A stretch of 64,000 bases of DNA from an uncultured Actinomycetes bacterium (GTDB lineage Bacteria; Actinomycetota; UBA4738; HRBIN12). Location of the stretch: contig CAWAAO010000014.1 in assembly GCA_963780015.1 (NCBI GenBank), positions 333,336-397,335 on the forward strand. The letters run 5' to 3'. Of this stretch, positions 1-64,000 are shown piece after piece. Both the position numbers and the translations under genes were made by a program. How positions within the stretch are numbered: the first letter of the stretch is position 1; each line of letters starts with the position of its first letter. The notes beneath the pieces are model-generated. The model did not search any database, was not told where the DNA came from, and was given only the letters and a program-made list of their open reading frames with translations.

Positions 1-256
1 GGATTGCCCGCGGCCGAGGGAGAGGTCCTCGCGGCGCTGCGCGAACCGATGCTGCCCGATGCCGTGTCGCGTGCGGCCGGGTTGTCGATCCCCGACACCG
101 TCGGCGGCGCTGGTCCGCCTCGAGATCCGAGGTCTGGTGCAGGGCAACGGGGGCCGGTACCGGCGGACCGTGCAGCTTGCGGCGGAGGCACCCGGGGGCC
201 CCGGCGAGCCGGATGCCGAGCTCGAGGGCGGGAGCGGCCCACCCCCATCCGGGTGA
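1..256 (+). pseudogene. dprA: DNA-processing protein DprA, C-terminal fragment (5' end outside window; frame break near 103)
   Basis: Frame 1 reads AAEGEVLAALREPMLPDAVSRAAGLSIPDTV. Frame 2 then continues AALVRLEIRGLVQGNGGRYRRT (a DprA C-terminal winged-helix-like tail) to TGA at 254-256. The dprA-xerC neighbourhood is conserved in Actinomycetota. Confidence 0.5.
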
Positions 257-331
257 TTGCGTCGGCCAGGGGCCACTGGGACGATACGCCGTGGCTGTGG
301 CCGGACCCCCCGGCGCGCCCGGAGAGGACCC

Positions 332-1273
332 GTGTCACCCCGAACCGACGACGATGCGCTGCCCGCGTCCCAGCGTGACCTGATCGCGGCGTTCCTCGCG
401 CACCTGCGATTGGAGCGCCATCTCTCGCCGAACACACTGGCCGCCTACCGGACCGATCTGCTCCATCTGGCGACCTTTCTCGCTCGCTCGCACCGCTCCT
501 TGGAATCGGTCGATCACTCGACGCTCCGCCGATTCCTCGCCCAGCAGCACGCGCTCGGGTACGCGCGCGCCTCGATCGCGCGTCGGGTCGGCGCGATCCA
601 TACCTTCTATCGGTGGGCGGCCGACGCAGGTCGCATCGAGCACGATCCGTCGCTGCTCCTCGGCCGGCCGAAGGTCGCGAACCGCCTGCCGACGGTGCTG
701 CGGGTCGGCGAGGCGGCGGCCCTGATGGACGCGCCGGCACCGGCGGATACGGACGAGCCGGTGGCCGTCGCCGTCCGGCTCCGCGACGAGGCGATCCTCG
801 AGTTGCTGTACGGCTCCGGGCTTCGTGTGAGCGAGGTCACCACGCTGACGACCGAGGGTCTCGATCTCGACGGCGGTCGCGTGCATGTGGTCGGCAAGGG
901 GTCCAAGGAGCGTCGCGTGCCCCTGTCCGAGGACGCGGTCCGCGCGCTCCGAACGTGGCTGGCGGAGGGTCGGCCCCTCCTCGCCACCCAGCCGACCGAG
1001 GCGCTCTTCGTGAACCGCAAGCGCAAACCGATGAGCCCACGCGACGTTCGAGCCATGGTGGACGGTTATGCTGGTGACCTGCTGCCGGGGCGTCGAGTCG
1101 GACCTCACACGCTTCGGCACTCATTCGCGACACACCTGCTGGAAGGGGGGGCCGACATCCGCGCGGTTCAGGAACTGCTGGGACATAGCAGCGTCGCCAC
1201 GACGCAGCGGTACACGCATGTCTCGCGGACGCGGTTGTTCGAAGCGTATGAGCGCTCCCACCCGAGGGCCTGA
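332..1273 (+). CDS. xerC: Tyrosine recombinase XerC/XerD (chromosome dimer resolution)
   Basis: Lies in ORF 257..1273. Catalytic C-terminus [40 protein letters not shown]-terminal core-binding region [27 protein letters not shown]. Start placed at GTG 332 behind GGAGAGGA (321-328); earlier in-frame starts are possible. Confidence 0.85.
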
Positions 1274-1276
1274 CCG

Positions 1277-2197
1277 GTGAGTCCGACGAAGAAGACGACG
1301 GCGGCGGCGCCGAGCAAGCCCAAGGCGAAGGCGGCGACCGCGACGAAGACGAAGACGAAGGCCAAAGCGACGGCAAAGGTCATCGACACGTCGGCGCCGA
1401 TGGATCCGCGCGCCGTCTCGCACACGGTGCCGCCGCAGGTCGATGATGCGCTCGGCAAGAGCTGGCACGCGTTCAAGGCCGATGCCGACGTCCATGCCCG
1501 CGAGCGGCTGATCCTGCACTATGCGCCGCTGGTGAAGTACGTGGCGTCCCGCGTGGCCACCGGCCTGCCGGCCTCCGTCGATCAGGCCGATCTCGTGTCC
1601 TACGGGATGTTCGGGCTGATCGACGCGCTGCAGAAGTTCGAGCCCGGGCGAGGCAACAAGTTCGAGACGTACGCGATCCCTCGGATCCGTGGTGCGATCA
1701 TCGACGAGCTCCGCGCGATGGACTGGGTGCCACGCTCGGTGCGGTTCAAGCAGCGCGAGATCGAGAAGGCGCTCGCCGACCTCGAGTCGATGCTCAAGCG
1801 CCAGCCCTCGGAGAAGGAGCTCGCCGAGCGCCTCGGCATGTCGCTGCACGAGCTGCACGAGGTCATCACCCAGATCTCGTTCGTCTCGGTGCTCGCCCTG
1901 GACGAAACGGTCTCGGTGGGCGCGGACCGCGGCGAGAAGGTGTCGCTCGTCGACACGCTGGCCGACAAAGGCTTCGACCCCATCAGCGGCGTCGAGTCGC
2001 AGGAGACCCGTGGCTTGTTGGCGGCGGCGATCAACGAGTTGTCCGAGCGCGAGAAGATCGTCGTGACCCTGTACTACTTCGAGGGCCTCACGCTCGCCGA
2101 GATCGGCGAGATCTTGGGCGTCACCGAATCGCGCGTGTGCCAGATCCACACCAAGGCGGTCGGCGTGCTCCGCGGTCAGATGACGGAATACGACTAG
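1277..2197 (+). CDS. whiG: RNA polymerase sigma factor, FliA/WhiG (sigma-28) family, with Lys/Ala/Thr-rich N-terminal extension
   Basis: Motifs YGMFGLIDALQKFEPGRGNKFETYAIPRIRGAIIDELRAMDWVPRSVR and LSEREKIVVTLYYFEGLTLAEIGEILGVTESRVCQIHTKAV. Synteny xerC-whiG-M23-rpsB as in Streptomyces. Alternative start ATG 1400 would remove the extension. Confidence 0.8.
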   Translation: MSPTKKTTAAAPSKPKAKAATATKTKTKAKATAKVIDTSAPMDPRAVSHTVPPQVDDALGKSWHAFKADADVHARERLILHYAPLVKYVASRVATGLPASVDQADLVSYGMFGLIDALQKFEPGRGNKFETYAIPRIRGAIIDELRAMDWVPRSVRFKQREIEKALADLESMLKRQPSEKELAERLGMSLHELHEVITQISFVSVLALDETVSVGADRGEKVSLVDTLADKGFDPISGVESQETRGLLAAAINELSEREKIVVTLYYFEGLTLAEIGEILGVTESRVCQIHTKAVGVLRGQMTEYD

Positions 2198-2287
2198 ACC
2201 CGTGTCTGCCGTGACATCCGTCACGATCCGGCGGTGAGCAGGCCACTACCGTTTCGGCGGTGAGACGCGCGTTGCTTCGTTCGCTGC

Positions 2288-2977
2288 TTGCCGTCGTCGT
2301 CGTTGGTCGTCGTCGCGCCGAGCGCCGATGCCGCGATCCCGTGGAGCTGGCCCGTGACCGGTCCCATCGTGCGCGGCTACGACCCGCCCGATTCGCCCTA
2401 CGGCAGCGGCCACCGCGGCATCGACATCGCCGCGGCGATCGGCTCCGTCGTGCTCGCGCCCGACGACGGCGTCGTGACGTTCGCCGGCAAGGTCGGCGGG
2501 CGCCTCTTCCTCACGATCGACCACGGCGGGGGCGTCACGAGCACCTGTTCGTGGCTCACATCCGTCCTCGTCCGAAAGAACGATCGCGTCACCCGCGGCC
2601 AGCCGGTCGCGACCACCGGCTGGGGCCACGCCGATCTCACGGTGCCGCATCTGCATTTCGGCGTGCGCCTCGATGGCGCCTACGTCGATCCGCTCGCATA
2701 CCTGGGTGCGCCGTCGGTCTCGACGATGATCAGGCTCGCGCCGCTCGACGCTCCGGCGCCGATGGCCACGGGTAGGATGACGGGCCTTGCGTACCCCTCG
2801 ACTCCTCGCGTTGCTCGTCTTCCTGGCGGCCGCATCGTCGGCGGTGCCCGCGCTCGCGGCGACCTCGTTGAACCCGTGGCCGCAGTTTCAGGCCGACGCC
2901 GGCCGTTCGGGGTCGGCACCGGAGGCCCCGGCGCCTCCGTACCGCGTCGCATGGAGCGCCCCGGCCGGTATCGGTGA
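2288..2977 (+). CDS. M23/LytM family metallopeptidase (both ends uncertain)
   Basis: Motifs HRGIDIAA, LTIDHGGGVTSTCSWL and PHLHFGVRLDGAYVDP. A signal-peptide-like MRRALLRSLLAVVVV lies in the neighbouring frame from GTG 2260, so a frame break near 2302 is possible. The ORF runs 190 nt into the next gene, so the true stop may be near 2775-2780. Confidence 0.7.
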   Translation: MPSSSLVVVAPSADAAIPWSWPVTGPIVRGYDPPDSPYGSGHRGIDIAAAIGSVVLAPDDGVVTFAGKVGGRLFLTIDHGGGVTSTCSWLTSVLVRKNDRVTRGQPVATTGWGHADLTVPHLHFGVRLDGAYVDPLAYLGAPSVSTMIRLAPLDAPAPMATGRMTGLAYPSTPRVARLPGGRIVGGARARGDLVEPVAAVSGRRRPFGVGTGGPGASVPRRMERPGRYR

Positions 2978-4291
2978 CACGACCCACATCAGCGGCATCC
3001 CGGCTCCCGTCCTGACCGGATCGCTCGCCATCGTCGTCGGCCGCGAGGACGTGAGCGCGGTCGACCTTTCCTCCGGCGAGCCCGCATGGACCGCGCCTCG
3101 GGCGCTCGGCCCCTCGGCGCCCGCGGCCGTGGCCGCCGGCCTCGTGCTGTTCGTGGAGGGCGGGGGAGACGAGTCGGCCTCCGCGTCCGACACCCCATCG
3201 CGCCGCCACCTCCTCGACCGCCTCCGGCACACCGTCGTCGTCGGCATCCGCGAGCACAGCTCCGTCCCCGCAAAGCGCGGCACCGTCCTCGAGCGCCACG
3301 ACCTCCACCTTGGTCGCGATCGATCTCGGGACCCGGGAGCGCGCCTGGACGGTGCCTCTGTCGGAGGTCAGCCATACGGGAGTGCTGTTGGTCGGCCAGC
3401 TCGCGATCGTGGGCACCGACGACGGTCAGATCACCGCCGTCGACATCGCAAGCGGCAAGCAAACGTGGAGCGTCGATGTCGGCGACCACGTGCTCGCGGC
3501 GCTGGCCGGCACCGATGACCTCGTCCTGGCGAGCGTGCGGCCCGAGGCCCAGGGGTCCGCGTCCCTCGTTGCGCTGCATGTGGGCGACGGGTCCGAGGCA
3601 TGGCGCTTTCAGCCCACGGGCGCGGTCCTCGATCTCGGCTCGCCGAGCGTCGGCGGCGACCTCGTCTATGTGGTGGCCTCGGATGGGTCGCTCCGGGCGG
3701 TCGCGGTCGACGACGGCGCCGAGCGGTGGGCCGCGCGCCTGTACACGCCGACCGCCGGCTCACCCCCGGCCGTGAACGATGCCGGCGTGTTCGTGACGGA
3801 TCAATCCGGGACGATCTACGCCTTCGACCCGGCGTCGGGGGCCGAGCGATGGCGGTATGCGTCCAATCGATTCGCGGTCGGGGGGCCGATCGTGACCGCC
3901 GACACGCTCCTGCAGCCGGCGAGTGACGGCACGATCCTCGCGGTCGACACGAGCACCGGGCACCAGGTCTGGCACGCAACCGTTGTCGGACGCCGCCGTC
4001 ATCGGCCTCGCCGCCACGGCGGACACGGTCGTGGCGACGAGCACCGGGACGACCCCCGGCTTCGTGGCGCTGGAGACCGATCCCGCCGGCGTGACGGAGG
4101 ACATCACGAGTCCGACCACCCCGAACCCGACCGGCCTCGTGCTTGCCTGGTTCGCGGCCGCACTCCCTCTCGCCGCGGCGCTGGTGTTGCTCGGACGCGC
4201 CCTGGACACGCGCATGGGGACGCCCGATCTCGGCACGGCCGAGGACGATGTCGTCGATCCATGGGAAACGGAGTCGGGGGACGAGACGTGA
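2787..4291 (+). pseudogene. Secreted PQQ-like/BamB-like beta-propeller repeat protein with C-terminal TM anchor (two frame breaks)
   Basis: TTG start followed by signal peptide RTPRLLALLVFLAAASSAVPALAATS. Repeats LVAIDLGTRERAW, GQITAVDIASGKQTW, LVALHVGDGSEAW, GSLRAVAVDDGAERW, GTIYAFDPASGAERW and GTILAVDTSTGHQVW. TM helix LVLAWFAAALPLAAALVLLG. The protein is continuous only with frame 0->1 near 3201 (DTPS|AATSST) and 1->2 near 3985 (WHATV|SDAAVIG). Confidence 0.65.
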
Positions 4292-5261
4292 GCAACAAGA
4301 AGAAGAAGCGGCCCTCGGGCACGGCATCGACGTATCGCGCGCCGGCGCAGACCACCAGCCCGCCGCGACGCGGTCTCCTCGACGGCCTGCTCGCACCGCG
4401 CACACCGGGAGCCTCGCCGATGCCGAAGCTCCGCTCGACGCTGGCACGCGGCGCCGTGACGGCGCTGTCGCAGCCGTGGCTGGTGGTCGGCATCCCGGTG
4501 ACGATGTTGCTGCGTGTGGGTCCTGCTCACGACCCTCGGGTTCCAGGGGCCCTTCACGATCATGGGCGTGACGTTCGCGATCCCACCGATCACGACGTTC
4601 TCGGACGCGCAGGTGGCGGGCAAGACCTTCCGGGCGGCGGTCGGTGCGACCGGCGTCGCCGTGGCCTTGCCCGGGCTGGTCGGCATCACGTCGTTGCTGT
4701 TGTTCCACGCCGCCGTCGACGCGTTGGTCACGACGATGTCGGTCGAGAAACTGCGAACGGGTGCGGTGAGCGCGTGGGCGATCCGGCGAGCCGGTCGCGT
4801 GATCCGCACCACCGCGACGGTCGGGTTGATCTCCCTGGGCCTGCTGATCGCCGGCAACGTGATCGCGGCCTTCCTGGGCGGGATCGGCGTGATCTTCGGC
4901 CTGATCGGATCCATGGTCGTGGGGGTCTACCTCTTCGGGTTCGCGCCGACGATCGCCACCGACGAGGAGCGGCGCGTGACCGACAACCTGGTGCGGAGCG
5001 TGCGAGCGGCGCGCATGCCCGGCTCGGCCAACCTCTGGCTGGCGGTCGGCTATGTCCTGCGTCTCCCTGGTCGTGCTGATCGCCCCGTTGCCGGGCTCCA
5101 CGATCGGCGTGACGCCGACGGTGACAGCCTGGGCCGCCTCCATCGCGATCAACGTGGTCCACGTGATCGTGCAGGCCACGCTTGCCTACCGGTACCTCGT
5201 GGTCGCTCCCGAGGTGCCCGAACAGCCCGTCCCCCGCCAGGCGCCGGCCCGCCGGCGCTAG
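4288..5261 (+). pseudogene. Polytopic membrane protein of unknown function (two frame breaks)
   Basis: GTG 4288 overlaps the upstream stop (GTGA). Basic N-terminus SNKKKKRPSG is followed by several hydrophobic helices. Continuity needs frame changes near 4513 (VTMLL|VWVLLTTLGF) and 5060 (AVGYVL|VSLVVLIAPL). No family recognised. Confidence 0.55.
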
Positions 5262-5408
5262 CCGGGCCGCGGGCGAAACCCGCTGCTAGACTCGCTGCGC
5301 CGGTGCATCCGCGCCGAGCTCACACGTCCGGGGATCGTTGCCGGGGTCCCTTGCGGGCCGGCGCCGAGTCGATCCGGACGGAGGAGAAAACCGAAAGGAG
5401 CAGCTGCC

Positions 5409-6392
5409 ATGCCGGTCGTCACCCGGCGGGAGCTCCTCGAAGCAGGCGTGCACTTCGGCCACCAGACACGCCGGTGGAACCCGAAGATGAAGCCGTTCTT
5501 GTTCGGGGAGCGTTCCGGGATCTATCTGATCGACCTCGAGCAGTCCCTCGCGGGGCTCGAGGAAACCCACGCATTCGTCCAGGCCCTCGGCCGCCGCCGC
5601 GGCATCGTGCTGTTCATCGGCACGAAGAAGCAGGCCCAGGAGGTCGTGTCCGAGCACGCCACGCGTATCGGCATGCCCTACATCAACAATCGCTGGCTCG
5701 GCGGCATGCTCACCAACTTCGCGACGATCAAGGGTCGCCTGCTGCGCCTGCGTGAGCTCGTCGAGATGGACGAGACCGGCGCGATGGACCGCCTGCCCAA
5801 GAAGGAGGCGATCCGTCTGCGTCACGAGCGCGAGAAGCTCGAGCGCAACCTCGGCGGCATCGCCGGGCTCGAGCGGCTTCCCGACGCCGTCTTCGTGGTC
5901 GACACCAAGAAGGAGCACATCGCCGTCACCGAGGCGCGCAAGCTCGGCATCCCGGTGATCGCCATCGTCGACACCAACTGCGACCCCGACGAGGTCGACT
6001 TCGTGATCCCCGGCAACGACGACGCGATCCGGGCGGTGAACCTGGTGACCCGGGTGATCGCCGACGCGCTCGCCGAGGGCTACGGCATGGCCAAGGAGGA
6101 GGTCGCCGAGAACCTGGCGGCACGTGCGCCGCGGAAGCCCGGCGGTCCCAAGCCGCAGGCGGCGCCCGCCGCGGTCGACGACACGCCCTCCGACGAGGAG
6201 GCGGCGGCGATCGCGATCAGCACCGTGTTCGAGCCGGACGCGCCCGAGGCGGAGGTCGTCGAAGACGAGATCGTGATCGAGGCGGTGGCCGAGGCGGAGA
6301 CGCCCGAGGGCCCGGTCGAGGTCGTCGAGGAGACGATCGTCGACGTCGCACCCGAGGCGGCCCCCGAGCCGGCCTCCGGAGAGGAGAGCTGA
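5409..6392 (+). CDS. rpsB: 30S ribosomal protein uS2 with acidic C-terminal tail
   Basis: [27 protein letters not shown] plus a full uS2 core. AAAGGAG lies upstream of the ATG. About 90 aa of Glu/Asp/Ala/Pro/Val-rich tail follow. Confidence 0.97.
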
Positions 6393-7000
6393 TGGCGGAG
6401 ATCACCGCCGAGATGGTCAAGGTCCTGCGCGACGCAACCGGCGCGGGCATGATGGATTGCAAGCGTGCCCTGATCGAGTCCGACGGCGACACGGCGCGGG
6501 CGACCGAGATCCTTCGCGAGAAGGGCCTCGCAAGCGTGGCCAAGCGCGCCGGTCGCAGCGCCGATCAGGGCCTCGTCGACGCCTACATCCATTTCAACAA
6601 CACGGTCGGTGTGCTCGTGGAGGTCAACTGCGAGACGGACTTCGTCGCCAATACCGACGAGTTCCGCCAGCTCGTGAAGGACCTTGCGCTGCACATCGCG
6701 AGCCCATCCGCACCGAGGTGGCTCAGCCGCGACGACGTGCCGACCTCGGTGCTCGAGTTCGAGCAGAAGATCGCCGAGGGGCAGGCGAAGGAAGCCGGCA
6801 AGCCCGAGAACATCGTGCCCAAGATCGTCGAGGGCAAGATCGAGGCGTTCCTCAAGGACAACGTGCTGGTGGACCAGCCGTTCGTCAAGGACGACAGCAA
6901 GACGATCCAGCAGTACCTGGACGAGGTCAGCGCCAAGACGGGTGAGAAGGTCCAGGTCCGCCGGTTCGCCCGGTTCAAGCTGGGCGAAGAGGCGGAGTAA
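6392..7000 (+). CDS. tsf: Elongation factor Ts (short, 202-aa form)
   Basis: Motifs EMVKVLRDATGAGMMDCKRAL and VNCETDFVA. TGATG overlap with rpsB. Confidence 0.95.
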   Translation: MAEITAEMVKVLRDATGAGMMDCKRALIESDGDTARATEILREKGLASVAKRAGRSADQGLVDAYIHFNNTVGVLVEVNCETDFVANTDEFRQLVKDLALHIASPSAPRWLSRDDVPTSVLEFEQKIAEGQAKEAGKPENIVPKIVEGKIEAFLKDNVLVDQPFVKDDSKTIQQYLDEVSAKTGEKVQVRRFARFKLGEEAE

Positions 7001-7056
7001 GCTGACGCCGGACGTGGGAGCCCGCCGGGCGCCCGCGGGGGAGGAGCGCGACACGC

Positions 7057-7776
7057 ATGGCTGACGGCGACGCACGACCCGCCTACCACCGGGTCTTGCT
7101 CAAGCTCTCGGGCGAGGCGTTCGCACCCCCCTCCGGTTCGGGGATCTCCGACGCCGCGACGGCGCTGGTGGCCCGGCAGCTGGCCGAGGTGGTCGACATG
7201 GGCATCCAGCCGGCGGTCGTGGTCGGCGGGGGCAACATCTGGCGCGGACGCCAGGCCCCCGGCATCGACCGCAATCGGGCCGACTACATGGGGATGCTGG
7301 CCACCATCATGAACGCGCTGGCCCTGCAGGACGCCTTGGAGAAGATCCACGTGCCGACGCGGGTCCAGTCGGCGATCGCGATGACGCAGGTCGCCGAGCC
7401 GTTCGTGCCGTTGCGTGCGACCCGCCACCTCGAGAAGGGCCGGGTCGTGATCTTCGCGGCCGGGCTCGGCGTGCCGTACTTCTCCACCGACACCTGCGCG
7501 GCCCAGCGGGCACTCGAGATCAACGCCGACGCGCTGTTGAAGGGCACGAAGGTGGACGGCGTCTACACCGCCGATCCGGTGGTCGACACGACGGCGAAGC
7601 GGCTCGACATCCTCGAGTACGGTGACTTCCTTCGGGAAGGGTATGGCGTGATGGACGCCACCGCCGTCTCGTTGTGCATGGAGAACAAGCTGCCGATCCT
7701 CGTGTTCAATCTCCGTGACGAAGGCAACATCCGCCGGGTCGTCACGGGCGAGCACATCGGTACCGTCATCCACTGA
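7057..7776 (+). CDS. pyrH: UMP kinase
   Basis: Motifs [40 protein letters not shown] and [22 protein letters not shown]. Confidence 0.96.
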
Positions 7777-7785
7777 GGAGCCCCC

Positions 7786-8346
7786 GTGACGATCGAGACC
7801 GCCATGCGAGACGCCGAGCACAAGATGGATCAGGCGCTCACCCATATGAAGGATGATCTGGGCAGCATCCGAACCGGTCGGGCGGCGCCCGCGGTGTTGA
7901 GCCGGGTCACCGTCGAGTACTACGGCACGCCCGTTCCGTTGAACCAATTGGCCGGCGTGACCGTGCCGGAGCCGCGTCTGTTGCAGGTGCAGCCGTTCGA
8001 CAAGAGCGCGATCGGCGCGATCGAGAAGGCGATCATGACGAGCGATCTCGGCATCACACCGAACAACGACGGCAACGTGATCCGGTTGGCGTTCCCGCCC
8101 CTGACCGAGGAGCGGCGCAAAGAGCTGGTGAAGCAGGTGCACCATCGCGCGGAGGAGGGTCGCGTCGCCGTCCGCAACGTCCGCCGCCACGCGAAGGACG
8201 AGATGGAGAAGCTTGAGCATGACGGCGCTATCTCGGAGGATGATCTTGCTCGTGCGGAGAAGGACCTACAGAAGCTGACCGACCGCTTCGTGGCCGAGAT
8301 CGATCAGATCCAGGGCCACAAGGAGCAGGAACTGATGGAGGTCTAG
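7786..8346 (+). CDS. frr: Ribosome recycling factor
   Basis: Motifs LGSIRTGRAAPAVLSRVTVEYYGTPVPLNQLAGVTVPEPRLLQVQPFD and VRNVRRHAKDE. GAGGAG lies upstream of the GTG. Confidence 0.96.
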   Translation: MTIETAMRDAEHKMDQALTHMKDDLGSIRTGRAAPAVLSRVTVEYYGTPVPLNQLAGVTVPEPRLLQVQPFDKSAIGAIEKAIMTSDLGITPNNDGNVIRLAFPPLTEERRKELVKQVHHRAEEGRVAVRNVRRHAKDEMEKLEHDGAISEDDLARAEKDLQKLTDRFVAEIDQIQGHKEQELMEV

Positions 8347-8350
8347 TCCA

Positions 8351-9863
8351 GTGGCCAACGACGAACGCGGTGGCGACGAGCTCTTCGAGGATCTGGACAA
8401 GTTCTTCGCGCCGATCAAGGACGTGGATTGGGACGAGCCCGACGAGCCGGCGGCGACGGTGCCGGCCGAGGAGCACGTTGCCGTCCGCACCGAACAATCC
8501 GCACCGATCCAGCTCCCCGAGGACGCCGGGGCGCCGAGCGACGCCGGCGACGACGACGCCTGGTACGACACCGGCCAGCTCGAGGAGATCGACGAGATCC
8601 TCGGCGAGCCGGCGCGGGCGGCCGATGAGACCGGTCGAGGTCATCGCGGTCGAGGACGCCGAGCTCGAGGACACACCCGCGGCCGACGCCGATCCGACCG
8701 TGGCGATGGACGCCCTCGAGGTGGAGGAGGTCGTCGTGCGCGCCCCGTCCGCGGAGGAGCTCGAGGCCGCGGCCGATCATTTCGCGGGGTCCCTGGCGCG
8801 CGACGAGACCTATCCGACCGAGCCGGTCGACGTGTTCGCCGGCGAGCCGCGAGAGGCAGATCTGCTCAGCGAGCTCGGTGCCGACGACGTGGAGGAGGAG
8901 CTGCTGTCCGACATGCAGGACGCCTCCTCGCCGCGAACCGTCGTCGTGGGCGGCGAAGGCATCACCGGACCGAGCTGGCAGGAGCCCGCCGCGGTCGAGG
9001 TCGGCGCGGAGATCGATCGCCGAGGATCCGTCACCGGCGATCGCGACGTGCCGGCCGCCTTCATGACCGGGGTGGTCCTGGCGGGGGTCGCCGTCGTGTC
9101 CCTGTGGGCGGGACCGGCCTATTTCGCCGCCTTCGCGGGACTCCTGGTGCTGGTGGCCCAGGGGGAGTTGTTCGGGGTGCTGGTCAAGCACCACTTCCGG
9201 CCGGCCGCCCTGATCGGACTCGTGGCCGGGGCGCTCATGATGCTCGGGGCCTACTGGCGGGGCGAGGCCGCGACCCCGGCGATGTTCGCGCTCGGTGTGA
9301 TCGCGGCGTTCCTCTGGTACATGACCGTGCCCGTCGATCAGCGCTCCCACGTCGTGCGCGACCTCGGGGTCACGGTGTTGAACATGGCCTGGATCCCGTT
9401 GCTCGCGGGCTACCTGATCGCGACGCTCAAGCTGCCCGACGGCAAGGCGCTCGTCCTGTGGGTGATCCTGCTGACGTTCCTGTTCGACACGGCCGCCTTC
9501 CTGATCGGCTCGGTGTCGGGCGGCGGCTGGATCCAACGGCCGCTGGCGCCCAACGTCAGCCCGAAAAAGTCATGGGAAGGCATCATCGGCGGGGCGCTCG
9601 CCACGGCGATCGTCTCCGTGGCGTTCGTGTCCTCGTTCGTCGGGGTCTTCGAAGGGCGAAAGCTGGCGGCGCTGGGACTCGGTCTCGTGATCGCGGGCGC
9701 CGCCACCTTCGGCGACCTCGCGGAGTCGCTGCTCAAGCGGGATATCGGCGTGAAGGACATGGGCACCCTGCTTCCCGGCCACGGCGGGGTGCTCGATCGG
9801 ATCGACTCCCTGTTGTTCGTGGCCCCGGCCACCTTCCTGCTGTTCCGCGTGATCTTCGGCTGA
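8351..9863 (+). pseudogene. cdsA: Phosphatidate cytidylyltransferase CdsA with long acidic N-terminal region (frame break near 8630)
   Basis: C-terminal motifs SPKKSWEGIIGG and FGDLAESLLKRDIGVKDMGTLLPGHGGVLDRIDSLLF. The acidic ORF from GTG 8351 has a coding-like GC3 bias and no stop in its own frame. It joins the cdsA frame at AADE|PVEVIAVEDAELED. Alternative: an independent start at ATG 8625. Confidence 0.75.
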
Positions 9864-9922
9864 CCGACGGATCGGGGTTCCTACCGCCGGGTTCACGCGG
9901 GCTCGGGGTAAGCTCGACCGTG

Positions 9923-11080: not shown

Positions 11081-11083
11081 CGC

Positions 11084-12196: not shown

Positions 12197-12292
12197 CGGG
12201 CCGCGATATGCTCCTGACCTGCAGGAACGCCCGCAGGGCCGTCACAGTTTCTCCATCCGGCCACCCCCCGCCCGCAACCTCGGCCGCGTACG

Positions 12293-14823: not shown

Positions 14824-14845
14824 TCCGCCGCCCTGGGAGACTCGA

Positions 14846-15931: not shown

Positions 15932-15932
15932 C

Positions 15933-17165: not shown

Positions 17166-17208
17166 GTCGTGCTCAACCGTAGCGGTCGCGGGTGCCGATG
17201 ACTCGGAG

Positions 17209-23922: not shown

Positions 23923-26056
23923 GTGAGGGTCCACGAACTGGCGAAAGAACTGGGTGTCACCAGCAAGGAGTTGCTGGGGACGCTCGGCGCGATGGGCGTG
24001 ACCGGCAAGTCCGCCTCCTCCAGCGTGCCCGAGGACGTCGTTCCGCGCCTGCGCGCATCCGGCGGGAAGGCGACCACGACGCCGGCCAAGCCCCGCGAGG
24101 TCCTCGAGCCGCCGCCGGCCCCGCGCAAGGCCAAGCCCAAGGCCAAGCCGAAGGCCAAGACGGAGCCGAAGGCGGAGCCGCGGGAGCGTCCTCACCGCGA
24201 CGGCGCCCGCGCTCGTTGCGGCCGAGGAGCCCGCGAAGGTCGAGGAGCCGAAGGAGGCCAAGCCCCGGCGGCGTCCGGTCGAGGAGCCCGCCGTCCCCAC
24301 CGGGCCGGTGCTGCAGGTGATCCACGGCGCCACGCCGCAGACGATCGGGGAGAAGACGAACCGCTCCCCGGCGGAGATCGTGAAGGTCCTGTTCCTGGCC
24401 GGCGAGATGGTGACGGCGACCACGTCGCTGAACGACGAGGCGATCGAGTTGATCGCCGCCGAGCTCGGCTACACGGCCGACATCATCGGCCTCGAGGACG
24501 AGCTGAAGGCCGAGGAAGAAGCCGAGGTCGTCGATGAGACCAAGCTGGAGACGCGTGCCCCGGTGGTCACGATCATGGGTCACGTCGACCACGGCAAGAC
24601 GAAGCTGCTGGACGCGATCCGCTCCACCGACGTCGTGGCCGGCGAGTTCGGCGGCATCACGCAGCACATCGGCGCGTACCAGGCGCACGTCGGGCAGCGA
24701 GAGATCACCTTCATCGACACGCCCGGCCACGAGGCGTTCACGGCGATGCGCGCCCGCGGCGCGAGCGTGACCGATATCGCGGTGCTGGTGGTGGCGGCCG
24801 ACGACGGCGTGATGCCCCAGACGCTCGAGGCGCTCGACCACGCGAAGGCGGCAAACGTGCCGATCGTCGTGGCCGTGAACAAGGTCGACAAGGACGACGC
24901 AGACCCCAACCGCGTGCGCACCCAGATGGTCGAGCACGGCATCATCCCCGCCGAGTGGGGCGGCGAGTTCGAGTTCGTCGACGTGTCTGCCAAGGCGCAT
25001 CAGAACCTCGACACGCTGCTCGAGACGCTGCTGGTGGTCGCCGATCTGGAGGATCTCAAGGGCGACCCGACGGGGCGCGCCCGCGGCACGGTGCTCGAGG
25101 CGCACCTCGACAAGGGTCGCGGGCCCGTGGCCACCGTCCTGGTGCAGAAGGGCGAGCTGTCGGTCGGCGACGCGTTGATCGCGGGCACGGCGTACTGCCG
25201 CATCCGCGCGATGCAGGACGAGAACGGCGCGGCGGTCGACAGCGCCAGCCTGTCCAAGCCGGTCGTGATCCTCGGCTGGAGTCACGTGCCGAGCGCGGGC
25301 GACGACTTCCGCGAGGTCGAGGACGAGCGCGAGGCACGGCACATCGCGGAGGAGCGCGAGGCGAAGTCCCGTCAGGCCGAGCTGGTGGTGGCGCGGCGTG
25401 CAACGTTGCAGGACCTGCTGCGCCGTACCGGCGCCGATGCCGTCACCGAGCTGAACCTGATCGTGAAGGCCGACGTGCAGGGCTCGGTGCAGGCGCTCGA
25501 AGACTCGTTGCTCAAGCTGCCGCAGGAAGAGGTGCGCGTGAACATCGTCCGCGCCGGCGCCGGCGGGATCACCGAGAACGACGTCACCCTCGCGATGGCC
25601 TCCGACGCGATCATCGTCGGCTTCAACGTTCGGCCGGATACGAACGCGCGCGAGCTGGCGGAGAAGGAAGGCGTCGACATCCGCACCTACAAGGTGATCT
25701 ACGACGCGATCGACGACATCAAGGCGGCGCTGTCGGGCATGCTCAAGCCCGAGGAGCGCGAGCGCGTGCTCGGCGAGGCGGAGATCCGTCAGACCTTCCG
25801 GGTCCCGAAGCTCGGCGTGATCGGCGGTTCCTACGTGCGGAACGGCACCATCAGACGCAACGCGCTGGCCCGGTTGGTGCGCGACGGCGTCGTGGTCTAT
25901 GACGGAAAGATCGCCTCGCTGCGCCGGTTCAAGGACGACGTCGGCGAGGTGCGCGAGGGGTACGAGTGCGGCATCGGCCTGGAGAACTATCAGGACCTCA
26001 AGGACGGCGACCTCGTCGAGGCCTACGAGGTCGAAGAGGTCGCTCGCACCATCTGA
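23923..26056 (+). pseudogene. infB: Translation initiation factor IF-2 (single frame break near 24190)
   Basis: The N-terminus [39 protein letters not shown] is in frame 1. It continues in frame 2 as [66 protein letters not shown] to the stop at 26056. Confidence 0.93.
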
Positions 26057-38478: not shown

Positions 38479-38544
38479 GGGCGGCTAGCATAGGGCGATA
38501 CCGCGCCGCCGCCCGGCGGCCCGCTGCGAAGGAGGCTCCCCGCG

Positions 38545-51417: not shown

Positions 51418-51427
51418 GGAGCGATCG

Positions 51428-53326: not shown

Positions 53327-54412
<1,086 letters not shown>

Positions 54413-54911: not shown

Positions 54912-55110
54912 GCCTTGCCTCGCCCCGAAGGTGGCCGTAAGGTGTGGAAAACCTGAACCACACACCTACGAGAGGCTCCATCCGACCTTGACCGAGCGAA
55001 CCGATCCCATGAGCGAACGACCGAATCCCGATATCGAACACCCGAGGGGGACGAAGACCCTCTAGGGGTGGCGGATCGTCGCTGCTCCGTGTCCTGGCCG
55101 CAGTGGTCCT

Positions 55111-55131
55111 CTCCCTGACACTCGCAGGGAG
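55111..55131 (+). promoter_or_regulatory. Hairpin sequestering the rny Shine-Dalgarno sequence
   Basis: CTCCCTG-ACACTCG-CAGGGAG (7-bp stem). The right arm contains the GGGAGG that sits 5 nt before ATG 55137. Confidence 0.5.
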
Positions 55132-55136
55132 GCATC

Positions 55137-56690
55137 ATGATCCCGGTGATCGTGGGCGTCGTCGCACTCGTTGTGGGCGCCATCGTCGGGTTCCTCGTCC
55201 GCGCCAACATGGCGAAGTCCTCCGCGAACACCCTCGAGGCGCAGGCGCGCCAGCAGGTGATCGCGGCCGAGCAGAAGGTCCTGGAAGCCAACCAAGAAGC
55301 AGCCACCGTCCTGCGCAAGGCCAACGAAGACGCCAAGGCGGACGCGGCGCAGGTGCGTCGCGAGGCCGAGGAGGACGTGAAGTCCCGCCGCGACGAGATC
55401 GCCCGGCTCGAGCGTCGGATCCTCGAGAGCGAGGAGGAGGTGCGCGAGCGGACCCGCAAGCTGGATACCCGCAGCGGGGAGCTCGATCAGCGCGACGAGA
55501 TGCTCCACGATGCCCGCCTCCGCCTGGAGCAGGCCGCCGACCAGCACCGCATCCAGCTCGAACGGATCGCCGGCATGACGTCGTCCGAAGCCCGCGAGGA
55601 GCTGGTCGCCCACGTGGTCGACGACGCCAAGCGCTCGGCCATGGCGCAGGTCCGCGAGATCGAGCAGCACGCGCGCGAGGAGGGCGAGGAACGCGCCCGC
55701 AAGATCCTGACGATCGCGATCCAGCGGGTGGCCTCCGAGCAGACGGCCGAGTCCACGGTCAGCGTCTTCGCCCTGCCGAGCGAGGACATGAAGGGCCGGA
55801 TCATCGGCCGTGAGGGCCGCAACATCCGGGCCTTCGAGGCCGCGACCGGCGTCAACATCATCATCGACGACACCCCCGAGGCCGTGGTGCTCAGCAGCTT
55901 CGACCCCGTCCGGCGCGAGGCCGCGCGCATGACCCTGGAGAAGCTCGTCCAGGACGGCCGCATCCACCCCGCGCGGATCGAGGAGGTCCACGAGCGTTCG
56001 CTGGCCGAGATCGAGGAGCGCATCCGCAGGGCCGGCGAGGACGCCGTGGCCGAGGTCGGCATCACCGACATCCACCCCGAGATGATCAAGCTGCTCGGGC
56101 GCCTGCAGTTCCGCACGAGCTACGGCCAGAACGTCCTGCGCCACCTGGTGGAGTCGGCGCACATCGCCTCGGCGCTTGCCTCGGAGCTCGGTGTCGACCC
56201 GGCGATCGCCAAGCGGGGCGCCTTCCTGCACGACATCGGCAAGGCGGTCACGCACGAGGTCGAGGGCTCGCACGCGATCATCGGCGCCGAGATCGCGCGC
56301 CGCATGAAGGAGGATCCCGAGGTCGTCCACTGCATCGAGTCCCACCACGGGGAGGTCGAGCAGCACACGATCCACGCGGTGCTCGCCCAGATCGCCGACT
56401 CGATCAGCGGCGGCCGCCCCGGTGCGCGCCGCGAGTCGCTGGAGACCTACGTGAAGCGGCTGGAGCGCCTCGAGGAGATCTGCAACGCCTTCGAGGGCGT
56501 CGAGAAGGTCTACGCGATGCAGGCCGGCCGCGAGGTCCGCGTGCTCGTGCAGCCCGAGGCGGTCGACGACATCCAGTCCCAGGTGATCGCCCGCGACATC
56601 GCCAAGCAGGTCGAGGAGGAGCTGCAGTACCCGGGGCAGATCCGCATCACGGTCGTCCGCGAGACGCGCGCCACCGAGTACGCGCGATGA
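55137..56690 (+). CDS. rny: Ribonuclease Y
   Basis: N-terminal TM helix MIPVIVGVVALVVGAIVGFLV, a coiled-coil region, KH motif GRIIGREGRNIRAFE, HD domain AFLHDIGKA. Confidence 0.96.
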   Translation: MIPVIVGVVALVVGAIVGFLVRANMAKSSANTLEAQARQQVIAAEQKVLEANQEAATVLRKANEDAKADAAQVRREAEEDVKSRRDEIARLERRILESEEEVRERTRKLDTRSGELDQRDEMLHDARLRLEQAADQHRIQLERIAGMTSSEAREELVAHVVDDAKRSAMAQVREIEQHAREEGEERARKILTIAIQRVASEQTAESTVSVFALPSEDMKGRIIGREGRNIRAFEAATGVNIIIDDTPEAVVLSSFDPVRREAARMTLEKLVQDGRIHPARIEEVHERSLAEIEERIRRAGEDAVAEVGITDIHPEMIKLLGRLQFRTSYGQNVLRHLVESAHIASALASELGVDPAIAKRGAFLHDIGKAVTHEVEGSHAIIGAEIARRMKEDPEVVHCIESHHGEVEQHTIHAVLAQIADSISGGRPGARRESLETYVKRLERLEEICNAFEGVEKVYAMQAGREVRVLVQPEAVDDIQSQVIARDIAKQVEEELQYPGQIRITVVRETRATEYAR

Positions 56691-59824: not shown

Positions 59825-60919
59825 CCGAGCTGGCCGAGCGGCTCGCCGCCGACACGCTCGCCCTGATCGACATCGCGTCGGAGAGCCGTGACGAGGGCGC
59901 GATCCTCGACGCGATCCGTCCACGCGATTGGCCGCGGCGCCCGGGACTGCAGATCGTCGACGACCACGACGGCGTCCTCGCGGCGCTCCCGAAACGACGT
60001 CCGGGGCTGCCGCTGGTGCTGCTCGCCGGACACGTGGACACGGTGCCGCTGGCGGGGGCGTCGCGACCCGGGCGCCGGACGGCGACGTCGTGCGTCGGCC
60101 GGGGCGCCGCCGACATGAAGGGCGGCGTCGCCGTGATGCTGGCGCTCGCCGACGAAGGCGCCGGCGGCGCCTCGGACCTCGACGTCGGCTATCTGTTCTT
60201 CGGGCGCGAGGAGATGCACGATCGACGGAGTCGGCGCTGCTGCCGGCGTTCGACCGAACGCCCGAGCTGCGGCGAGGCGGCGCTGGCGATCGTGATGGAG
60301 CCCACCGACAACACGCTCGAGGTCGGGTGCAACGGGAACCTCACCGCGCGCGTGACCGTGCGCGGTCGCGCGGCCCACAGCGCGCGCCCGTGGCTCGGCC
60401 ACAACGCGATCCACGCGGCGATCGAGGCGCTGGCGTCCGGTCGCCGACCTGCCGGTCCGCGACGTCGAGATCGACGGGCTCGTCTTCCGCGAGGTCGTCT
60501 CGGTCACGACGATCGCCGGCGGTGTCGCGGGCAACGTCGTCCCCGACCACGTCGAGGCCACCGTGAACTTCCGCTATGCGCCCAATCACACGCCCGGCCG
60601 AGGCGGAGGCACGGCTGCGCGAACTGCTCGGGCACCCGCGGGTCGAGGTCGCGATCGTCGGCAACGCACCGCCCGGTCCCGTCTGCCTCGACAACCCGCT
60701 CGTGACGCGACTGCGCGCCGCCGGCCGACCTCGATGTTCGGCCCGAAACAGGCGTGGACGCCGGTGGCGGAGTTCGGGATGGTCGGCGTCGACGCGGTCA
60801 ACCTCGGCCCGGGAGACCCGCGGTACGCTCACACCGACGACGAGCAGGTCACCGCGACCGCGCTCGCGCGCGCGCACGCGATCGTGTCGGCGTTCCTGGC
60901 CGGGAGGAGCTGTAGATGA
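59821..60919 (+). pseudogene. dapE: Succinyl-diaminopimelate desuccinylase (M20 family; at least seven frame breaks)
   Basis: The segments LLAGHVDTVP, GRGAADMKGG, IDGVGA, LLPAFDRTPEL, ALAIVMEPTDNTLEVGCNG..GRAAHSARPWLGHNAIH, DVEIDGLVFREVVSVTTIAGG..VNFRYAPNHTP, AEAEARLRELL.., DLDVRP and KQAWTPVAEFG..GPGDPRYAHTDDEQV are spread over all three frames. Confidence 0.85.
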
Positions 60920-62095
60920 TGCACCTGTCCCCCGGCCATCCGCGCGGTGGAGCCCTACCCGTTCGAGGAGCTCGACCGGCGCAAGAAGCCGAGGCGGTCG
61001 ATGCCGGCCGACGAGTCGTCGACTTCGGCGTCGGCGACCCACGCGAGGAGACACCGGCGCTCGTGCGCGATGCGCTCACGGATGCGATCGGACCGATCTC
61101 GTCGTACCCGCGCGCCGCGGGTCTGCCGGCATTGCGGCGTGCGATCGCCGCTGGGTGGACCGTCGCTACGGTGCGACGATCGACCCCGACACGCAGATCC
61201 TGCCGACCCTCGGTTCGAAGGAGCTCGTGTTCTCGCTGGCGCAGGCCGTGCTCGATCCCGCCGCCGGCAAGGACCTCGTGCTCACGACCGCGCCCGGCTA
61301 CCCGATCCCCGAGCGGGGCGCGCGCTACGCCGGCGGCGACGTCCATCGTCTGCGTCTGACCGAGGAGCGCGGCTTCCTGCCGGATCTCGGGGCGATCACC
61401 GACGAGCAGTGGGCGCGCGCCAGCCTGCTGTGGCTGAACTATCCGAACAACCCGACCGGCGCGGTGGCGCCGCTGTCGTTCCTGGCCGAGGCGGCCGAGC
61501 GATGCCGCACGCACGACGTGTTGCTGGCCTCCGACGAGGCCTACAGCGAGCTGTGGTTCGGCGACGAGCCACCGTCGGGCGCGCTCGCAGCTGCCGGACC
61601 TCACCAACGTCGTGGTGCTCAACACGCTGAGCAAGCGTTCGTCGATGACCGGCTACCGCAGCGGCTTCGCGGCCGGCGATCCCGACCCTGATCGCGCGCG
61701 CTGCAGCGGCTCCGCCCGGCGGTCGGGGTCACCCCGCAGGAGTTCGTCCAGCGCGCGAGCATCGCGGCCTGGGGCGACGAGCGCCACGTCGAGCAGAACC
61801 GGGCGCGGTACGCGGCCAAGCGGGCGGTGTTCCTCGAGCTGTTCGCGCGGCACGGCGTGCACGTCGCGGGCAGCGAGGCGCACCTTCTACCTGTGGGTGG
61901 CGGTCCCGAGCGAACGCCCGTCGCTGGCCTGGGCGATCGAGCTGCTGGATCGGGCAGACGTCGTCGTCGCGCCCGGGTCGTTCTTCGGACCGGAGGGCGA
62001 GGGGTACGTGCGCATGGCGATGGTGCCCGACCCTCGAGGAATGCGAGCGCGCCGCGGGCTCGCTCGACCGGCTCTTCGCGGAGGTGCGCGCGTGA
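60916..62095 (+). pseudogene. dapC: N-succinyldiaminopimelate aminotransferase (DapC-type class I aminotransferase; about eight frame breaks)
   Basis: The segments AVEPYPFEELDRRKK, VVDFGVGDPREETP, WVDRRYGATIDPDTQILPTLGSKE..LNYPNNPTG..SDEAYSELWF, VVLNTLSKRSSMTGYRSGFAAGDP, LQRLRPAVGVTPQEFVQRASIAAW, FYLWVAVP..APGSFFGPEGEGYVRMAMVP and TLEECERAA lie in alternating frames. Confidence 0.85.
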
Positions 62096-62924
62096 TCGAG
62101 GAGCTCGCCGCGCGCATCGACGCGACCTGGACGGCCGTCCAGGCGGATCCGGCCGCGCCGATCGACGTCGAGGCCGTCGAGGACGCCATCGCGGCGCTCG
62201 ACCGCGGCGAGGTGCGCGTCGCGGAGCCGACGGCGCCGGGCGAGCCCTGGCGCGTCAACCACTGGGTCAAGCAGGCGGTGCTCCTCTACTTCCGTGTGCG
62301 CGGGCTGGAGACGACCGAGAGCGGGCCCGTTCGAGTATCACGACCGGCTGCCGCTGAAGCATGGGTACGCGCAGGCGGGCGTGCGCGTCGTGCCGCCGGC
62401 GACGGTCCGCTACGGCGCGCACATCGAGCCCGGCGCGGTGCTCATGCCGAGCTACGTCAACATCGGCGCGTGGGTCGGCGCGGGCACGATGGTCGACACC
62501 TGGGCCACGGTCGGCTCGTGCGCGCAGATCGGCGCCGACGTGCACCTGGCCGGCGGGGTCGGGATCGGCGGCGTGCTCGAGCCCGTGCAGGCCGCCCCCG
62601 TCGTGATCGAGGACGGAGCGTTCATCGGCTCGCGCTGCATCGTGGTCGAGGGCGTCCACGTCGGCGCGGGCGCGGTGCTCGGCGCCGGCGTCGTCCTGAC
62701 GGGGAACACGCCGCTGATCGATCCTCGCGGCGCCGAGCCGCTCGAGTATCGCGGCCGCGTGCCCGCCGGCGCGATCGTCGTGCCGGGCTCGCGCGCCCGC
62801 GAGTTCCCGGCCGGGCACCTACGGGATGCCCTGCGGCCTCATCATCGGCGAGCGCACCGCGGCCACCGACGACAAGGTGGCCCTGAACGACATGCTGCGC
62901 GACTTCGGATCCTCGCTGAGCTAG
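62092..62924 (+). pseudogene. dapD: Tetrahydrodipicolinate N-succinyltransferase (two frame breaks)
   Basis: [16 protein letters not shown] comes first. After a break at about 62320 come [81 protein letters not shown]. After a break at about 62815 comes [30 protein letters not shown]. Close to the E. coli-type DapD. GTGA overlap with dapC. Confidence 0.9.
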
Positions 62925-62929
62925 CCGCG

Positions 62930-64000
62930 ATGCCCCAACACCCCCAGGACCGCATCGTCGAGTCACCGATCGCCGCGACCTGGCGCTCGGTCCAGCACGA
63001 GCGCGCCGTGCTCGTCGGTATCGGCCCCGGCATCATGGAGGCCGACCTCGACGAGCTGGCGGCGCTCGCCGACTCCGCGGGCGCCGAGCCCGTCGGCCGG
63101 ATCATCCAGAGCCGCGCCGAACCCGACCCGCAGCTCTGGATCGGCAAAGGGAAGGTCGAGGAGCTGCACCAGGTCCTGCACAGCGACGCGCGCCGAACTG
63201 GTGGTCTGCGATCAGGAGCTCTCGCCCGGGCACCTGCGCTCGCTGGAGGCGCGCCTGGGCGTCAAGGTGCTCGACCGCACCGCCCTGATCCTGGACATCT
63301 TCGCGCTGCACGCCCACACGCGCGAGGGCAAGGCCCAGGTCGAGCTCGCGCAGCTGAACTACCTCCTGCCGCGGCTCCGCGGCTGGGGTGAGGCGATGAG
63401 CCGGCTCGGCGGCGGTATCGGCACCCGCGGGCCCGGGCGAGACCAAGATGGAGTCCGACCGGCAGCACATCCGCCGCCGCATCGCGAAGCTCCGTCGCGA
63501 CGTCAAGGCGATGCAGACGACGCGCGACACGCAGCGCGCCAGCCGCCAGCGCTCGAACATGCCGCAGGTGGCGATCGCCGGCTACACGAACGCCGGGAAG
63601 TCCTCGCTGATGCGCCGGCTGACCGGCGCCGACGTGATCGTGGCCGATCAGCTGTTCGCCACGCTCGACCCGACGACCCGCCGGATCGTCCTGCCGGGCG
63701 GGCGGGTCGCGACGCTGTCCGACACGGTGGGGTTCGTGTCGAAGCTCCCGCACGACCTCGTCGAGGCGTTCCGTTCGACGCTGGAGGAGGTCACCTTGTC
63801 GGACATGATCGTGCACGTCGCCGACGCGGCCTCGGCGGCGCTGGACGACCAGATCGAGGCCGTCCACACGCGTGCTGGAGGAGATCGGCGCGGCCAACAT
63901 GCCCGAGGTGCTCGTGCTCAACAAGATCGATCTGGTGCCGGGCTCGCGACGGGCGCGCCTCGCGCACCCGGTATCCGGGCTCGGTGGCCTTCTCGGCGGT
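62930..64000 (+). pseudogene. hflX: GTPase HflX (3' end outside window; three frame breaks)
   Basis: LHSDAR|[18 protein letters not shown] at 63194. Then ..[39 protein letters not shown]|ETKMESDRQ at about 63433. Then ..[21 protein letters not shown]|VLEEIG..LNKIDL at about 63870. Confidence 0.9.

Follow-up and report, generated by a model that had tools for sequence, protein, structure and literature searches.

Do conserved bacterial genes that run on in the next reading frame record something that the organism does, or something that happened to its sequence during assembly? The question is posed by a 64,000-nucleotide stretch of DNA from an uncultured Actinomycetes bacterium (contig CAWAAO010000014.1 of assembly GCA_963780015.1; the whole stretch is termed the window). 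An original prediction, made from the sequence alone, counted about fifty frame breaks in conserved genes, nearly all of them displaced by +1 (one extra base), and attributed them to insertion-biased consensus error. That attribution is supported by the analysis reported here, as comparable breaks are missing from other, independently made assemblies of the species and the open reading frames (ORFs) are restored on correction. Because the independent same-species assemblies lack every comparable break (one, at position 4512, is common only to another long-read assembly), comparison of the sequences makes it almost certain that the frame breaks are consensus errors of a long-read metagenome assembly, and do not exist in the DNA of the organism. 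The breaks are an assembly artefact and bring nothing biologically new.

The window is a conserved actinobacterial gene run, from dprA to hflX, with a G+C content of 68-74% over its 64 kb; gene names follow the Pfam labels given to genes called in related loci. Frame breaks were sought by three independent routes: protein-to-DNA alignment, DNA alignments with relatives of about 80% identity, and base-level alignments within the species. For the first of these a frameshift-aware aligner was written for the analysis, with the ORFs of 12 related loci as references; for the second, private indels were counted in multiple DNA alignments with the ~80%-identical relatives. The nearest species-level genomes are metagenome-assembled genomes (MAGs) of uncultured soil Actinomycetota, with approximately 80% nucleotide identity and 90% identity in RNase Y. 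Same-species loci, 19 in number, were located through PyrH, an M16 peptidase and a CoxS-like protein and are 95-98% identical to the window. Six of these constitute a long-read class (ENA assemblies ERZ250395xx with Flye-style "contig_N" names), to which the window contig, we infer, is similar in kind. The remaining loci, JGI contigs or NCBI genome records, are termed short-read-type, a class assigned by source and contig naming only; for the two NCBI genomes, including the locus designated L185, the term is an assumption. Rny, when searched against JGI metagenome contigs, gave a best match of 91% amino-acid identity and no same-species contig. By exact match, nine intact proteins of the window are present in the public protein collection, several of them solely on a 409,266-bp contig that is evidently the source; Rny and RecA read from the longest ORF start have no exact record, and RecA starting at 53327 is found on that contig alone.

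In all, 71 indel events of a length not divisible by three were found in the window, 62 of them insertions (67 bases) and nine deletions (10 bases; binomial p = 7e-11), so that both the abundance and the +1 bias of the breaks were borne out. Their distribution is strongly uneven: 42 of the 71 fall within the last 7.3 kb, 11% of the window (p = 6e-22), with a density of 0.51 per kb before 56.7 kb versus 5.75 per kb after it. The terminal region contains 35 insertion events (40 bases) and seven one-base deletions, which agrees with the "at least 31 more" that had been predicted there. The protein-to-DNA aligner alone recovered 31 inserted and two deleted bases after 56.7 kb in events seen with multiple references. 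When 55.1-64 kb was aligned with nine relatives by MAFFT, 26 one-base insertions, three two-base insertions and three one-base deletions proved private to the window, all between 56,822 and 63,965; the relatives each had 0-3 private one-base insertions. Pairwise comparison with L185 over 41.4-62 kb gave 40 insertions and 10 deletions of such lengths in the window. The same frame changes are seen in tblastn searches with ORFs of the related loci, in which single orthologues switch window frame: CinA from frame 3 to frame 1 at about 46,700, the CoxL-like protein from 2 to 3 at 48,604 and from 3 to 1 at 49,702, and MiaB from 1 to 2, back to 1 and again to 2.

All junctions listed beforehand were recovered within about 20 bases, and same-species alignments pin each one except that in infB. 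Those in recX (54,437) and in the histidine-phosphatase-like gene (35,717/35,729) were missed by the reference-ORF analysis and were placed by the same-species alignments. Tabulation of the sign, base and context of the indels in frameshift-aware alignment against orthologues confirmed the breaks and their insertion bias. About 25-28 genes are interrupted as written, close to the 25 first estimated; breaks in the single-copy genes infB, cdsA and dapA, generally regarded as essential, are present in the record, and no break in pnp, ftsK, rnj or rny is seen in the frameshift-aware alignment, as had been stated. Some points required revision. Of two junctions in the aminotransferase gene (dapC) thought to be -1, the one near 61150 is a true one-base deletion at 61151 and the one near 60990 is a two-base insertion. 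Nor were these the only candidates for that sign, as a one-base deletion also occurs at 59061, and those at 52319, 59684, 60078 and 60272 are compensated within 5-30 bases by an insertion. Events at 2303, 50520 and 52319/52351, together with intergenic events at 2208, 34469, 43918, 45072 and 53111, were absent from the prediction.

The evidence that carries the artefact reading is the comparison among assemblies of the one species. Over positions 1-17,775, where nine other same-species assemblies (95-98% identical) were aligned, seven private one-base insertions and no private deletion are found in the window. The short-read-type assemblies L099-L103 have no private one-base indels there; for the long-read assemblies, the private one-base insertions and deletions number 12 and 7 in L096, 6 and 2 in L098, and one each in L095 and L097. 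Over 26.6-43.7 kb, in a multi-assembly alignment, the window has six private one-base insertions, one two-base insertion and one deletion; the long-read L186 has 14 insertions and 3 deletions of one base, and the six short-read-type assemblies (L187-L190, L192, L193) have none. Across these two comparisons nine short-read-type assemblies were aligned, and in none of them is a one-base indel private. The window insertions at 102, 2208, 2303, 3985, 5059, 8636, 12429, 34469, 36891, 37205 and 38708 occur in no other aligned same-species assembly. For 41.4-62 kb, where the comparison was pairwise with L185 (a same-species MAG, 96% identical), all genes are intact in L185 and the window events have no counterpart. 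In the short-read-type assemblies each affected gene is a single, unremarkable ORF, and when the frameshifts are removed from the window, its translations align over 97-100% of the length of each L185 protein, are 88-99.6% identical to it and contain no in-frame stop. The private indels of L096, L098 and L186 lie at different positions. As judged from these alignments, the defect tracks assembly type and not lineage. The individual events are collected in the table below.

Table of frame-altering and associated events in the window. Positions are those of the window, with net base changes in parentheses where given; "private" means absent from the other assemblies aligned.
Gene or region and event	Position	Position predicted earlier	Strand	Comparison
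dprA, 3' part, extra C	102	103	+	Private among 10 same-species assemblies; DprA (396 aa) intact in most fetched same-species assemblies
Spacer between sigma factor and M23 peptidase, extra G	2208		intergenic	Private insertion in a strain-polymorphic stretch
M23 peptidase, extra T	2303		+	Private; other-strain alleles TCGTCG-TGG and TCGTGT-TGG; aligner gives 1-base insertion at 2278-2302
PQQ beta-propeller, net +1	3203	3201	+	Edge of a 15-bp strain indel; other assemblies have 15 or 0 extra bases, window 1; aligner gives 1-base insertion at 3201-3222
PQQ beta-propeller, extra G	3985	3985	+	Private; alleles GTT-T and GTT-G, window GTTGT; 3 references
Membrane protein, extra G	4512	4513	+	Common only to L096 (long-read); alleles CT and TG, window CTG
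Membrane protein, extra G	5059	5060	+	Private; aligner gives 1-base insertion at 5063
cdsA, extra base	8636	8630	+	Private; multi-allelic site GGA, GTC, GTA, window GGTC; CdsA (503 aa) intact in most fetched same-species assemblies
OmpR-type response regulator, extra C	12429	12434	+	Private; alleles CCA-A and CAC-A, window CCACA; 234 aa, intact elsewhere
infB, N-terminal low-complexity part, net +1	24181..24196	24190	+	Aligner gives 1-base insertion (references L081, L084, L085); comparison with ~80% relatives only, so net +1 is an insertion or a 2-base deletion
Just after dapB stop, extra G	34469		intergenic	Private among 9 assemblies
Histidine-phosphatase-like gene, 3' end, net +1	35717 (-1), 35729-35730 (+2)	35727	-	Private among 7 assemblies; 173 aa in short-read assemblies
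Hypothetical (secreted) protein, 394-397 aa, extra C	36891	36890	+	Private among 6 assemblies
Same hypothetical (secreted) protein, extra G	37205	37205	+	Private among 5 assemblies
dapA, extra G	38708	38710	+	Private; alleles TGA-C and TGA-G, window TGAGC; DapA (295 aa) intact in L187 and L188
Two bases fewer than L185	43918		intergenic	Pairwise with L185; real strain difference possible
Between divergent pyrophosphatase and HTH genes, extra G	45072		intergenic	Pairwise with L185
cinA, extra C	46700	46680	+	5 references give 1-base insertion at 46692-46701; CinA (424 aa) intact in L185
thpR/ligT, two extra bases	47747 (G), 48001 (C)	47748, 48001	+	Compared with L185; ThpR (193 aa) intact there
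CoxL-like molybdopterin dehydrogenase, three extra bases	48601, 49700, 50520 (gene end)	48603, 49704	+	756 aa, intact in L185
376-aa minus-strand gene	52319 (-1), 52351 (+1), 52514 (+1), 53111 (+1, just upstream)	52510 (for 52514)	-	Intact in L185
recX, near 5' end, extra G	54437	54440	+	RecX (164 aa) intact in L185
miaB, extra bases	56824, 57493, 57502, 57859		+	MiaB (447 aa) intact in L185
miaA, extra bases	58235, 58428, 58472, 58900		+	MiaA (299 aa) intact in L185
dapF	59061 (-1), 59684 (-1), 59690 (+1), 59699 (+1), 59796 (+1)		+	DapF (282 aa) intact in L185
M20 peptidase, first part	59919 (+2), 59940, 60078 (-1), 60093, 60153, 60156 (+2), 60216, 60226		+	Densest cluster (59919..60904, both parts); protein (360 aa) intact in L185
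M20 peptidase, second part	60272 (-1), 60276 (+2), 60436, 60592, 60728, 60740, 60904 (-1)		+	
Aminotransferase (dapC in the prediction)	60929, 60989 (+2), 61151 (-1), 61586, 61681, 61696, 61881, 62026	60990, 61150	+	Relatives and L185
Gene after aminotransferase, two extra bases	~62320, ~62813-62819		+	Private versus ~80%-identical relatives
hflX-like GTPase, extra bases	~63183, 63429, 63867, 63965		+	Private versus ~80%-identical relatives

Split genes are also found in the other long-read assemblies of the species: frr, dxr and ispG in L096, a sensor kinase gene in L095 and L098, and pnp, dapB and an acetyltransferase gene in L186, with a local frameshift cluster likewise present in L191. 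Long-read MAGs of other species show the same, with infB and dapB broken in L083, ispG and anthranilate synthase genes broken in L093, and 11 private one-base insertions in L006. As these assemblies carry the same defect at other genes, the problem is not specific to this contig. The density of errors varies about 20-fold among the same-species long-read assemblies. Identical one-base insertions were occasionally met in two independent long-read assemblies, namely at 4512 (the window and L096) and, at nearby alignment positions, at 13180 and 13191 (L095 and L098) and 13273 (L095 and L096), where the sensor-kinase gene is broken. Such recurrence indicates that the errors are partly systematic and site-specific, and not purely random.

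The inserted base itself is informative. Forty-eight single-base insertions could be placed at base resolution, and comprise 23 G, 21 C, 2 A and 2 T; the 92% that are G or C (44/48, versus 70.6% expected; p = 7e-4) agree with the earlier impression that the extra base is nearly always C or G, although the A reported at the cdsA junction proved to be C or G. The base matches a neighbour in 10 of the 48 cases, versus 51% expected for random insertions, and differs from both neighbours in the other 38; the prediction had noted that it often lies outside homopolymers. These are not homopolymer errors; no concentration in homopolymers, the usual Nanopore signature, was found, and the avoidance of homopolymers points to a different sub-type of artefact. 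Of 34 genic insertions, 29 have the inserted base next to a third codon position, and the commonest pattern is a G inserted before C, or a C before G, which is expected if G/C synonymous polymorphism is retained (third positions are ~90% G/C). Local GC content and frameshift density gave a rho of 0.25, which is not significant. A role for methylation motifs was considered, as GATCGA or CGATCG is found close to several insertions; neither motif shows enrichment.

Taken as real DNA, the breaks would require either extensive gene decay or a very unusual mode of decoding, and a truly biological reading of either kind (real strain-specific frameshifts or recoding) is very improbable. A massive, recent pseudogenisation of the strain, by genome decay or in a mutator lineage, would account for many interrupted genes in one stretch, here 25-28 as written, and could draw on the somewhat raised rates of synonymous (dS) and nonsynonymous (dN) substitution in the densest part. 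Bacterial pseudogenes are generally deletion-biased, however, and the 62:9 excess of insertions is the opposite. The breaks are moreover private to one assembly and occur in none of the species' short-read assemblies that extend over them, other long-read assemblies are broken at different places, and the indispensable genes infB, cdsA and dapA are among those affected. Selection also appears to have been maintained on the corrected genes: dN/dS relative to L185 is 0.06 for CinA, 0.02 for the CoxL-like protein, 0.04 for RecX, 0.105 for MiaB, 0.096 for MiaA, 0.16 for DapF and 0.107 for the aminotransferase, and nearby intact genes range from 0.03 to 0.12. Higher values, approximately 0.31-0.35, were obtained for ThpR, the 376-aa protein and the M20 peptidase (0.32), and an unbroken GNAT gene gave 0.36; for the M20 peptidase dN is inflated because short out-of-frame stretches remain between closely spaced indels. 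Genes with 4-8 frameshifts, no nonsense codon and strong purifying selection (dN/dS of about 0.1) are not decaying pseudogenes, and pseudogenisation is accordingly held to be highly unlikely. Programmed +1 ribosomal frameshifting or transcriptional slippage, as a genome-wide mode of decoding, would explain the nearly uniform sign and the conservation of protein on both sides of the junctions, features that recall the prfB type of frameshifting. In contrast to that system, the window shifts are found in no orthologue, share no motif, and number in the dozens. The ORFs are continuous in all aligned same-species assemblies and in distant orthologues, up to 15 events occur in a single gene, some only 3-10 bases apart (60153/60156, 60216/60226), and extra bases of the same kind lie between genes (2208, 34469, 45072). 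The 48 insertion contexts are heterogeneous with no shared shift motif visible among them, and of six candidate short motifs tested at the insertions only GCGC was nominally enriched (p = 0.014, uncorrected), which is attributed to the inserted G/C itself; the prediction had likewise seen no shared slippery motif. With no orthologue sharing the shift, heterogeneous contexts, spacings of 3-10 bases and intergenic cases, recoding is excluded for practical purposes, its probability being vanishingly small.

What kind of consensus error produced the breaks is a narrower matter. A somewhat probable cause of a substantial share of them, judged from assembled sequences and not from reads, is the collapse of co-existing strains into one consensus. 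In such a sample several strains of a 70% GC genome would differ by single nucleotide polymorphisms (SNPs) or adjacent SNPs, mostly at G/C third positions; noisy reads of two alleles may align as a deletion at one column and an insertion at its neighbour, and a polisher that retains both columns would write both alleles in tandem, at a cost of one extra base. Generic read noise at low depth may supply the remainder, and the ten-fold denser breaks after 56.7 kb could be due to a local drop in depth, to strains that diverge more there, or to the two together. The species is known from at least two or three strain groups, 95-98% identical, from the same kind of soil samples, and tandem strain alleles are present in the window at 2303, 3985, 4512, 8636, 12429 and 38708. 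When the long-read assemblies are pooled, 21 of 46 private one-base insertions touch a polymorphic column, versus 12% expected (p = 1e-8), and 13 of the 46 resolve exactly into two alleles of the panel, versus 2.3% for simulated random insertions (p = 2e-11). Frameshift density rises modestly with the substitution distance to L185 (rho = 0.35, p = 0.03), and dS relative to L185 is 0.14-0.23 in the dense region versus 0.05-0.13 elsewhere. An artefact of the same class could also have arisen with no strain mixture at all, through low-coverage long-read noise or a base caller prone to insert G or C, in which case 56.7-64 kb would simply be a stretch of the contig with low depth. This explanation is itself a form of the artefact reading, and within it a real but lesser possibility. 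It would suit the ~20-fold range of error density among same-species long-read assemblies, as a coverage effect would give, and residual indels have been tied to coverage below about 40x (PMC9262707). Two findings speak for noise and, equally, weigh against strain collapse: the panel strains all agree at five or more window insertions (102, 5059, 34469, 36891 and 37205), and mismatches beside the insertions are not enriched relative to L185 (3/36, versus 10% expected). In the window alone 6 of 13 insertions lie at polymorphic columns, and only 3 of 13 are strict cases of both alleles in tandem. Noise by itself does not predict the enrichment of insertions at polymorphic sites or the excess of tandem alleles, nor the independent recurrence of the 4512 error where strains differ by two adjacent SNPs, and the avoidance of homopolymers is the opposite of typical read noise. 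Collapse of strains is therefore proposed for only part of the events, given the 3/13 strict cases, the several strain-invariant sites and the absence of mismatch enrichment against L185.

Other considerations temper the artefact verdict as a whole. It was reached by comparing assemblies and not from read pile-ups, and the sequencing platform and pipeline are deduced from the sister assemblies. From ~43.7 to 62 kb the comparison rests on a single same-species reference (L185), and 17.8-26.6 kb and 62-64 kb, which include IF-2 and the last 2 kb, are comparable only with the ~80%-identical relatives. The usual Nanopore consensus defect, finally, is the homopolymer deletion, and the errors of the window are of another type.

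How, then, do the window errors relate to those already described? Residual indels of Nanopore-only assemblies (Flye and Medaka) are a close likeness, as they are single-base, private to long-read assemblies, uneven in density and able to split conserved genes, with short-read assemblies clean. Their production of frameshifted gene calls has been described (PMC9262707) and is acknowledged for the long-read MAG catalogue Microflora Danica (PMC12313526); such frameshifts are gauged by IDEEL-type tests for truncated proteins. Flye (meta, nano-hq) and a single Medaka round produced the Microflora Danica assemblies, and Nanopore errors were noted in the lower-coverage MAGs of that catalogue (PMC12313526); the same group had earlier found that about 40x coverage is needed for a near-finished Nanopore consensus (PMC9262707). 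Many of the related MAGs carry "MFD" names, which denote that catalogue. The published emphasis is on homopolymers, in contrast to the G/C insertion bias of the window and its 38 of 48 insertions unlike either neighbour. Consensus collapse of co-existing strains offers a second likeness, in that the extra bases favour sites at which strains vary and often present both alleles in tandem; it differs in being usually discussed in terms of fragmentation, chimeric haplotypes and SNP ambiguity. No paper describing a +1 "both alleles kept" indel signature was met, and as no search was aimed at that signature no novelty is claimed. It is about an even chance that the window exemplifies an apparently undescribed failure of long-read polishing, in which both alleles of a strain SNP are written as a +1 insertion. 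If it does, dense, insertion-biased, non-homopolymer clusters of frameshifts would be expected in public MAG catalogues wherever strains co-occur.

It is important to emphasize the practical consequences. In the organism itself dprA, cdsA, infB, dapA, cinA, recX, miaB, miaA, dapF and hflX are almost certainly ordinary genes without breaks. Automatic annotation of the record will nonetheless split, truncate, fuse or flag as pseudogenes some 25-28 genes in 64 kb, and estimates of MAG completeness and metabolic inference will be biased, with the lysine/diaminopimelate (DAP) genes dapA, dapF and the aminotransferase appearing broken. The record needs re-polishing, and the presence of the same signature in the sister long-read assemblies suggests that haplotype-aware or short-read polishing may be worthwhile for them.

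Several calls were set aside in arriving at the counts. A GC3 frame plot and a reference-free codon-usage Viterbi model with frameshift states served for mapping only and did not enter the totals; "deletions" that the latter placed at 6384, 14360, 22585, 33705 and 45785 are over-calls at overlapping gene boundaries. Calls at 1276, 7017-7059, 7779, 9919, 17205, 20226, 26366, 30030-30087, 38512-38541 and 55092-55487 were rejected, since they arise from the use of stop-to-stop reference ORFs or from mistakes in the references. Chunked MAFFT alignments with relatives of ~75-80% identity gave noisy counts of private indels, with few syntenic relatives per chunk, and same-species alignments were used instead. 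Within window positions 1-9650, 612 sites separate two short-read strain groups; the window carries the A-type allele at 408 and the B-type at 191, finely interleaved, and similar interleaving is found in L098. The pattern fits a third lineage of the species. It was considered as a mark of chimeric consensus, but a third lineage would interleave just as finely, L098 is alike, and the pattern was judged uninformative.

The order of genes in the window begins with dprA, a xerC-like gene, a sigma factor, an M23 peptidase and the PQQ propeller, followed by rpsB-tsf-pyrH-frr-cdsA-dxr-rseP, a two-component pair and ispG. It continues through rimP-nusA-infB-rbfA-truB-ribF-rpsO-pnp, dapB, dapA, rnj, ftsK, pgsA, cinA and thpR to a CoxLMS-like cluster, recA-recX, rny, miaB, miaA, dapF, the M20 peptidase, the aminotransferase and hflX. 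The CoxL/CoxM/CoxS-like molybdopterin dehydrogenase cluster occupies 48254-51952, between thpR and the recA region. No CoxL-like ORF of loci L004 and L027 aligns to this segment, and blastn matches of several relatives end near 47.6 kb and restart near 53.1 kb.

Length variation of a different character, in multiples of three, is also evident among the strains. In-frame strain indels of 3, 12 or 15 bp occur at 3203, 41254, 41810, 41943-41954, 52524 and 52839, in the PQQ propeller, FtsK and the 376-aa protein, and look like real strain variation; in ftsK a 12-bp tandem duplication (GTCCGACCTCGA) is common to the window and L186. The Gly/Arg/Asp/Ser-rich C-terminal tail of PNPase (32300-32335) varies in length in frame among strains, and the window has 18 additional bases there in two blocks, in a messy alignment with a net change that is a multiple of three and leaves the ORF open. 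In the variable C-terminal tail of RecA (54372-54378) the window has six bases (4+2) fewer than L185, again in frame, which is probably a real strain difference.

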